From NCBI RefSeq assembly GCF_003334335.1, contig NZ_QOWQ01000181.1: 501 nt of DNA. One strand, written 5' to 3'. Each line of letters opens with the position of its first letter. Position 1 is the first letter of the stretch. A model generated the notes under the pieces. It searched no databases. It was not told where the DNA came from and was given only the letters and a program-made list of their open reading frames with translations. This document shows, piece by piece, positions 1 through 501 of the stretch. Position numbers and translations under genes: made by a program. Source of the stretch: Escherichia coli (GTDB lineage: Bacteria; Pseudomonadota; Gammaproteobacteria; Enterobacterales; Enterobacteriaceae).

Positions 1-501
1 GTTGCAATGCTGTTTATGATGCTGTCAGTGCATGGGGTAGAAAGCTGGGCATCTCCAGCAATTTTCATGACCTCAACATCTGCATATCGAATACCGAGGT
101 GTATCAGACCGGCTATGCCTGACTTAAGCCGAGCATTTTCCATAAATAGAACTTTTGCCCGCTGTTTTTCTGCTTCAAGCTCAACGCGCAGCTTCCCTAC
201 CGTTAGCGCAATATCCTCGTTCTCCTGGTCGCGGCGTTTGATGTATTGCTGGTTTCTTTCCCGTTCATCCAGTAGTGCCAGCACGGTAGCCGGGTTAGCC
301 TCTGCTATGAATTCAGCGTTTGCATAAGCCTGAGCATCTGTTTCAATCAGGCAGTTAATATGACATTCCGCAATCACGCCACCGGGTTCTCCTTTCCATT
401 TTTGGCAAACAAAAACTCCTGTTAAATTGCCGTGCTGGTTAACAGATGTATGCCCTACGATGTAGCTTCCTTTAGTTGCTTTCTCTGCCTTTTCACGCAG
501 T
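1..501 (-). CDS. Partial CDS, both ends outside the window: probable ead/Ea22-like family prophage protein (N-terminal domain, central coiled-coil, start of C-terminal region)
   Basis: Seen in sequence: the minus-strand frame with codons + 500..498 down to + 5..3 is open for 166 codons; the other two minus frames have stops within the first 15 codons. Translation (N to C): LREKAEKATKGSYIVGHTSVNQHGNLTGVFVCQKWKGEPGGVIAECHINCLIETDAQAYANAEFIAEANPATVLALLDERERNQQYIKRRDQENEDIALTVGKLRVELEAEKQRAKVLFMENARLKSGIAGLIHLGIRYADVEVMKIAGDAQLSTPCTDSIINSIA. Composition is protein-like and codon choice is enterobacterial-looking (ctg, gaa, aaa, ccg). Family assignment rests on recalled motifs (AEKATxG, conserved W, ANPATVLALLDE followed by a charged coiled-coil); it is not a database result. 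Start codon lies beyond 501 and stop codon beyond 1. Confidence 0.75.
123..281 (-). other. Predicted coiled-coil segment within the CDS (residues ~74-126 of the visible fragment)
   Basis: Seen in sequence: LALLDERERNQQYIKRRDQENEDIALTVGKLRVELEAEKQRAKVLFMENARLK is rich in E/K/R/Q with hydrophobic residues (L, I, V) at roughly heptad spacing. No coiled-coil predictor was run. Confidence 0.5.

Follow-up and report, generated by a model that had tools for sequence, protein, structure and literature searches.

The window, by which we mean the whole 501-nt stretch of DNA analysed here, is very probably the interior of a minus-strand ead/Ea22-like gene of a lambdoid E. coli prophage or phage, and its plus-strand ORF is a by-product of that gene. 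The gene has been annotated before, belongs to a very common prophage family and is biologically routine. A small addition made here is that the +GE tail of Ea22 proteins can plausibly be explained at the nucleotide level.

The minus-strand gene and its family

Six-frame translation of the window gave a minus-strand frame, read from position 500, of 166 codons and no stops; each of the other five frames contains 4 to 13 stops. Based on base composition, the probability of 166 stop-free codons in one frame is 7.5e-5, and 10 of 5000 mononucleotide shuffles of the window left at least one of the six frames fully open. The open minus frame is real, and chance is ruled out as its origin. The first-pass annotation had described this stop-free frame, had named the plus-strand ORF at 7..327 as the only one listed, and had set a Ser-rich plus-strand product against an ordinary minus-strand translation. 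It was right on each point: 7..327 is the only listed ORF above 28 aa, and the minus translation has a high content of A, E, L, I, G and K. The ORF track lacks the minus gene because ORFs that run off either end are left out of the listing, and the gap is thus an artefact of track construction.

In a megablast search of complete E. coli genomes, the window was 99.8% identical to part of a minus-strand CDS of NZ_CP196679.1 (549 nt; 182 aa) annotated as "ead/Ea22-like family protein" (WP_439402585.1), of which it covers residues 9-174. The sole difference between the two is synonymous, AGA to AGG. Extending the frame in both directions, as the first-pass annotation had proposed, was done on this copy and placed a GTG 23 nt beyond position 501 and a TGA ending 24 nt before position 1. 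The whole window is also present, at 98.2-98.6% identity, in two phages, Lys8385Vzw and PhiR5_1 (annotated "Ea22" in the latter), and related stretches are found in 2496 of the 5426 complete E. coli genomes (46%), at up to 8 places per genome. The features of the locus, in window coordinates, are as follows.

1..501, minus strand: internal part of an ead/Ea22-like family CDS, residues 9-174 of 182; the full gene would span -24..524
474..500, minus strand: leader (residues 1-17; in the window from residue 9, ...LREKAEKAT), conserved and shared with lambda Ea22; AlphaFold2 (AF2) helix at 6-18
324..473, minus strand: N-module (residues 18-67), of a type common in Stx-phage matches; beta-strands predicted at low confidence
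165..323, minus strand: core (residues 68-120, ANAEFIA...ERERNQQYIKRRDQENEDIALTVGKLRVELE), start of the coiled coil; DNA shared with P22 and lambda relatives
3..164, minus strand: C-module (residues 121-174, KQRAKVLFMENARLKSGIAGLIHLGIRYADVEVMKIAGDAQLSTPCTDSIINSIA), one of many interchangeable C-modules; no known domain
outside the window, minus strand: tail (residues 175-182, (A/T)GIRIKGE), read from the full-length copy
-24..-1 and beyond (5972-5999 of the chromosomal locus, L001), minus strand: ea22 tail junction, with Shine-Dalgarno sequence, stop and next start
7..327, plus strand: antisense shadow ORF of 106 aa, Ser-rich (25/106), with an ATG start; not a gene

Profile HMMs cover most of the length of the minus translation: Pfam PF13935.11 (Ead_Ea22) matched with an i-Evalue of 1.5e-31 over model positions 8-139 of 139 and query residues 1-143, and phrog_368 matched with E = 7.7e-56. 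A wide protein search returned at least 8000 homolog clusters, all at E <= 0.001, and the source names of the best 120 of these homologs were mostly "ead/Ea22-like family protein". The other marks of the family were also found. The leader and core are those of lambda Ea22 (BLASTP E = 5e-24); a variable N-region, a predicted central coiled coil and a variable C-domain follow one another; the C-terminal K/R-G-E described for Ea22 proteins (PMC7093339) occurs as ...GIRIKGE, which lies outside the window and was read from the 99.8% identical copy; and in PhiR5_1 and Lys8385Vzw the gene is co-oriented within the lambdoid early operon (exo-xis region). Together with the existing annotation and the codon-usage score given below, the two profile matches, obtained by the homology search that the first-pass annotation had recommended, uphold its view that the minus frame is the real gene.

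A PDB sequence search with the minus translation and an Rfam search of the window at E <= 1 gave no match. Scans of the window found one promoter-like and one terminator-like site, as well as a 12-nt direct repeat and a weak 17-nt inverted repeat, all in numbers at chance level.

Modular build and proposed function

The protein is a mosaic, as defined from related loci and BLAST breakpoints. At least three alternative N-module sequences occur in relatives (L022, L035, L067), and a BLAST breakpoint falls at window position 323 in 8 loci. The core shows invariant alignment columns, and some BLAST matches cover only window positions ~160-323. Further breakpoints lie at 162-175 in 53 of 83 loci, and at least 13 C-module signatures were counted in 80 related loci; the C-module of the window matches phrog_11761, a family of unknown function.

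The AF2 model, built from a 29-sequence mosaic alignment and credible only in its central helix, places a helix over residues 78-156, with block-mean pLDDT values of 74-89 for about residues 81-130 and a mean pLDDT of 59. In the coiled-coil region, 61% of heptad a/d positions are hydrophobic, compared with 29% overall. Foldseek comparison of the model with the PDB returned no structure at E <= 0.001, and the PDB matches listed above that threshold were treated as meaningless.

Some relatives carry internal repeats. In the alignment of related proteins (A1), the 252-aa P0014 contains a tandem duplicate of the conserved core followed by the C-module of the window, and P0010 has a duplicated N-module; their sequences suggest that unequal recombination within the family gave rise to both. 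A Cys-His pair of the N-module, C54/H55 (window 360-365), is nearly invariant, even across an otherwise dissimilar alternative N-module, and a metal or structural role for it is possible.

Published work on related proteins gives the basis for a functional proposal. Ea22 of lambda and the Stx phages is expressed early from pL (PMC7093339, PMC10834534), and full-length lambda Ea22 is tetrameric, its C-terminal domain dimeric (PMC10834534). Mutants deleted for ea22 are induced faster and produce more progeny, and infection with them leaves fewer survivors and lysogens (PMC7093339, PMC10834534). Ea22 was reported to be pro-lysogenic in both lambda and Phi24B despite their differing C-termini (PMC7093339).

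Because its leader and coiled-coil core are homologous to those of lambda and Stx-phage Ea22, the variant in the window is, by analogy, most likely an oligomeric scaffold that displays its C-module and damps lytic development. Like its counterparts, it would be made early after infection or induction. It would then oligomerise via the coiled coil, as the lambda tetramer suggests, and may display the variable C-module to a host or phage partner. The outcome expected from published Ea22 work would be a lysis-lysogeny balance tipped towards lysogeny and host survival.

The C-modules are swapped freely (at least 13 types in 80 loci), which is typical of host-interacting accessory genes. This pattern would also fit a genuine Ea22 member whose main role is something other than lysogeny control, with a C-module that targets host envelope or stress physiology, inter-phage competition or counter-defence. 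The lambda protein lends this some weight, in that it has no known binding partner and its phenotype is not reproduced by the C-terminal domain alone (PMC10834534). We nevertheless regard such a role as unlikely, given that the pro-lysogenic phenotype was reported to be kept in lambda and Phi24B across different C-termini (PMC7093339), and that the minus translation matched neither a PADLOC defence-protein family at E <= 0.01 nor any NCBIfam model. A scaffold that acts in favour of lysogeny is the role we prefer.

Operon context and the tail junction

In the chromosomal copy, the gene starts with GTG, 8 nt after GGAGG and in a 4-nt overlap with the upstream stop (GTGA), and it ends with AAA GGA GAG TGA, one base ahead of the ATG of the next gene. 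ATG replaces GTG at the same start codon in some related loci. The neighbouring genes in the E. coli 99RCEF prophage, PhiR5_1 and Lys8385Vzw are all co-oriented with the ea22-like gene. The GTGA overlap and the one-base gap to the next ATG therefore indicate a compact early-gene operon whose genes are probably coupled in translation.

Nearly the same gene is found in two early-operon contexts. In PhiR5_1 (L002 3370-3918) it is flanked by int/xis and exo/bet/gam, in the classical exo-xis region, and in Lys8385Vzw (L003 3976-4524) it occupies the equivalent early region. In the 99RCEF prophage (L001 5976-6524) its position is nin-like and not between exo and xis: it follows the replication genes and precedes RusA and a DUF1133 family gene. 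Six annotated pseudogenes surround this copy (L001 4554-7173), among them a split DUF551 gene, a frameshifted ORF, a partial HNH endonuclease gene and a partial DUF4406 gene, which suggests a decaying prophage. Due to these pseudogene neighbours and the nin-like position, the expression context in 99RCEF may differ. The genes hokD and dicB also lie near the chromosomal copy.

The pseudogenes around the nearest chromosomal copy, and the fact that both the start and the stop of the gene fall outside the window, could be taken to mean that the gene, though of genuine descent, survives in the source of the window only as a decaying part of a defective prophage and is not expressed. We consider this quite improbable. 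All 166 codons are intact in the window, and the single difference from the intact copy is the synonymous AGA to AGG change. The frame is open in all 80 related viral loci, contig ends apart, even through non-homologous module swaps, and dN/dS among close full-length relatives is 0.13-0.52, below 1. The whole-gene value of ~0.5 against relatives of ~70% identity was discarded as inflated, because the N-module of those relatives is non-homologous.

Two further observations concern the phage copies and their neighbours. PhiR5_1 carries two genes annotated as Ea22 in one operon (L002 2098-2856 and 3370-3918) with one ORF between them. In Lys8385Vzw, a 188-aa product encoded two genes downstream of the Ea22-like gene (L003 2896-3462) is annotated 'valyl-tRNA synthetase', which is probably a mis-annotation, as the size is implausible. 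At the genome scale, several ea22-like copies are present in many E. coli genomes (up to 8 places) and provide homology for recombination between prophages.

Dydecka et al. noted that Ea22 proteins all end in K/R-G-E and called the significance of this tail unknown (PMC7093339), and two later papers do not address it. In our set of related loci, the invariant sequence AAAGGAGAGTGA-N-ATG ends 64 of 74 complete ea22-like genes, with 13 C-module signatures ahead of it and 22 downstream gene starts after it. Where the 24-nt tail varies, nearly every change is nonsynonymous and is located upstream of the 15 invariant nt. Three variant tails (KGGE, KGGA and KRGE) alter the peptide and keep GGAGG or GAGG, with a TAATG stop-start overlap. 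At least four unrelated ORFs (…RTKGE, …SNKGE, …HGKGE and …QGKGE) end in the same 12-mer as well, with an ATG or GTG one base further on. Comparative papers on HK97, HK022 and HK620 have described, in general terms, conserved sequences at the boundaries between early genes of lambdoid phages.

On balance, we favour reading +GE as a portable junction (ATC AAA GGA GAG TGA N ATG) and not as a protein motif, a junction that couples translation and offers homology for the exchange of C-modules and downstream genes. Selection for the Shine-Dalgarno sequence alone was rejected as an explanation, since lambda (L088, about 640-680) has the identical 24-nt tail followed by ATC in place of ATG and then by an open frame of 36 codons. 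Shared ancestry of the junction, or recombination at it, must therefore contribute.

The antisense ORF and comparison with known systems

A codon-usage model trained on 37 neighbouring annotated genes was used for the comparison of the two strands that the first-pass annotation had suggested. The minus frame scored +0.25 bits/codon and the plus-strand ORF -0.13. For the 37 neighbours, the sense frame gave 0.17 +/- 0.10 and the matching antisense frame -0.14 +/- 0.07, and each of the 37 scored higher in sense than in antisense. A GC1 above GC2 and purine-rich first positions, as in the neighbouring genes, are seen in the minus frame only; the plus-strand ORF has GC1 below GC2, and no Shine-Dalgarno sequence precedes its ATG. 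Among 10 distinct sequences of at least 98% identity, 3 have an internal stop that breaks the ORF. Across 83 loci the ORF is anywhere between 28 and 169 aa long and its start shifts, only the stop codon being common, and in 42 of the 83 it is 57 aa or shorter.

Polymorphism patterns must be read with care at this locus. Window positions ≡ 0 mod 3, which are the third codon position of both frames, account for 74 of the 122 polymorphisms, and 70 of the 122 are synonymous in the gene frame compared with 60 in the plus-strand frame. Because the gene and the ORF share third codon positions, periodicity, GC3 and synonymous counts cannot separate the two frames. The periodicity and synonymous tests show coding here, not its strand, and were dropped as strand evidence. 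The third-position GC comparison that the first-pass annotation had paired with codon usage was run and, for the same reason, does not discriminate.

The plus-strand translation has a family match of its own, to phrog_13760 (E = 1e-28), which covers only residues 52-106, encoded opposite the conserved core. The antisense ORF of a 256-aa ea22 variant from related loci aligns with the same profile from end to end (1-84 of 84, E = 7e-49). A longer version of the ORF was deposited as NP_859175.1 ("ORF B48; similar to enterohemolysin 2") in NC_004913.3, where it lies wholly inside, and opposite to, an ead/Ea22-like gene (L087 605-955, plus strand). Three other phage records that we inspected annotate the minus gene and not the plus-strand ORF. 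The enterohemolysin label traces to the ehly2 sequences of phage C3208, and the title of Oscarsson et al. 2002, as cited in PMC7093339, says that the determinants encode no enterohemolysins and cause ClyA release; that attribution is superseded.

Homology on the plus strand with none on the minus strand was what the first-pass annotation had held to speak against its reading. Plus-strand homology does exist, but so does minus-strand homology, and the plus-strand match is inherited from the gene that the ORF shadows and therefore is not independent evidence of coding. The ORF is an antisense shadow reading frame carrying the wobble positions of the gene, as the first-pass annotation had proposed, and phrog_13760 is a family of ea22 shadow ORFs and no independent protein family. 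That 7..327 is a real protein-coding gene, replacing or overlapping the minus gene, is scarcely credible: for all its 106 aa from an ATG, its family match, its deposited longer version and its nearly equal count of synonymous polymorphisms (42 against 49 in the gene frame, of 88), the synonymous excess is automatic where third positions are shared, its codon score equals that of the antisense frames of the 37 neighbours, and its GC pattern, missing Shine-Dalgarno sequence, internal stops, unstable length and starts, antisense profile and sparse annotation all stand against it.

These results indicate that an ORF track without end-truncated ORFs can show the antisense shadow of a real gene and hide the gene itself. 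The warning of the first-pass annotation that this locus could be assigned to the wrong strand was realistic, NP_859175.1 having been deposited inside an ea22-like gene. Shadow ORFs in public databases, here NP_859175.1 and phrog_13760, are a case of annotation-error propagation, and since they have been deposited as a protein and as a PHROG family, a wrong-strand homology match can mislead. The likeness of these two entries to the ORF at 7..327 extends over its residues 52-106; they differ in that the full-length profile is that of an ea22 antisense ORF and the deposited CDS stands opposite an ea22-like gene.

Among characterised proteins, lambda Ea22 (NP_040612.1), the founding member of the PF13935 family, resembles the product of the window's gene in its length of 182 aa, GTG start, leader (xSEINxQALRExAE), core (about 40 of 43 residues identical, LLDERERNQQYIKRRDQENEDIALTVGKLRVELE), central coiled coil and early-operon location in a lambdoid genome. 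Both also have the same 7-aa tail, GIRIKGE, from an identical 24-nt sequence. Only leader, core and tail align between the two proteins. Lambda Ea22 lacks the ~50-aa beta-strand N-module, and its C-terminal domain, the only part of it solved (by NMR), is unrelated in sequence to the C-module of the window. It differs further in the ATC, not ATG, that follows its TGA-N junction.

The P22-type Ead/EaA/EaD proteins of Salmonella phages, which share the Pfam family name, have the core DNA (window ~160-323) at 87-91% identity; their flanking modules are others, and only the core is common. The Ea22 proteins of the Stx phages 933W, Phi24B, P27 and vB_EcoS_P32 share the leader, N-module and core, and window positions 165/170-501 are 97-98% identical to Stx-phage ea22 DNA. 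Their genes are located in the exo-xis region (PMC7093339). They differ from the window's gene in carrying other, longer C-modules, with proteins of 199-315 aa in related loci; the 182-aa build with the C-module of the window is found in PhiR5_1, Lys8385Vzw and about 20 viral contigs.
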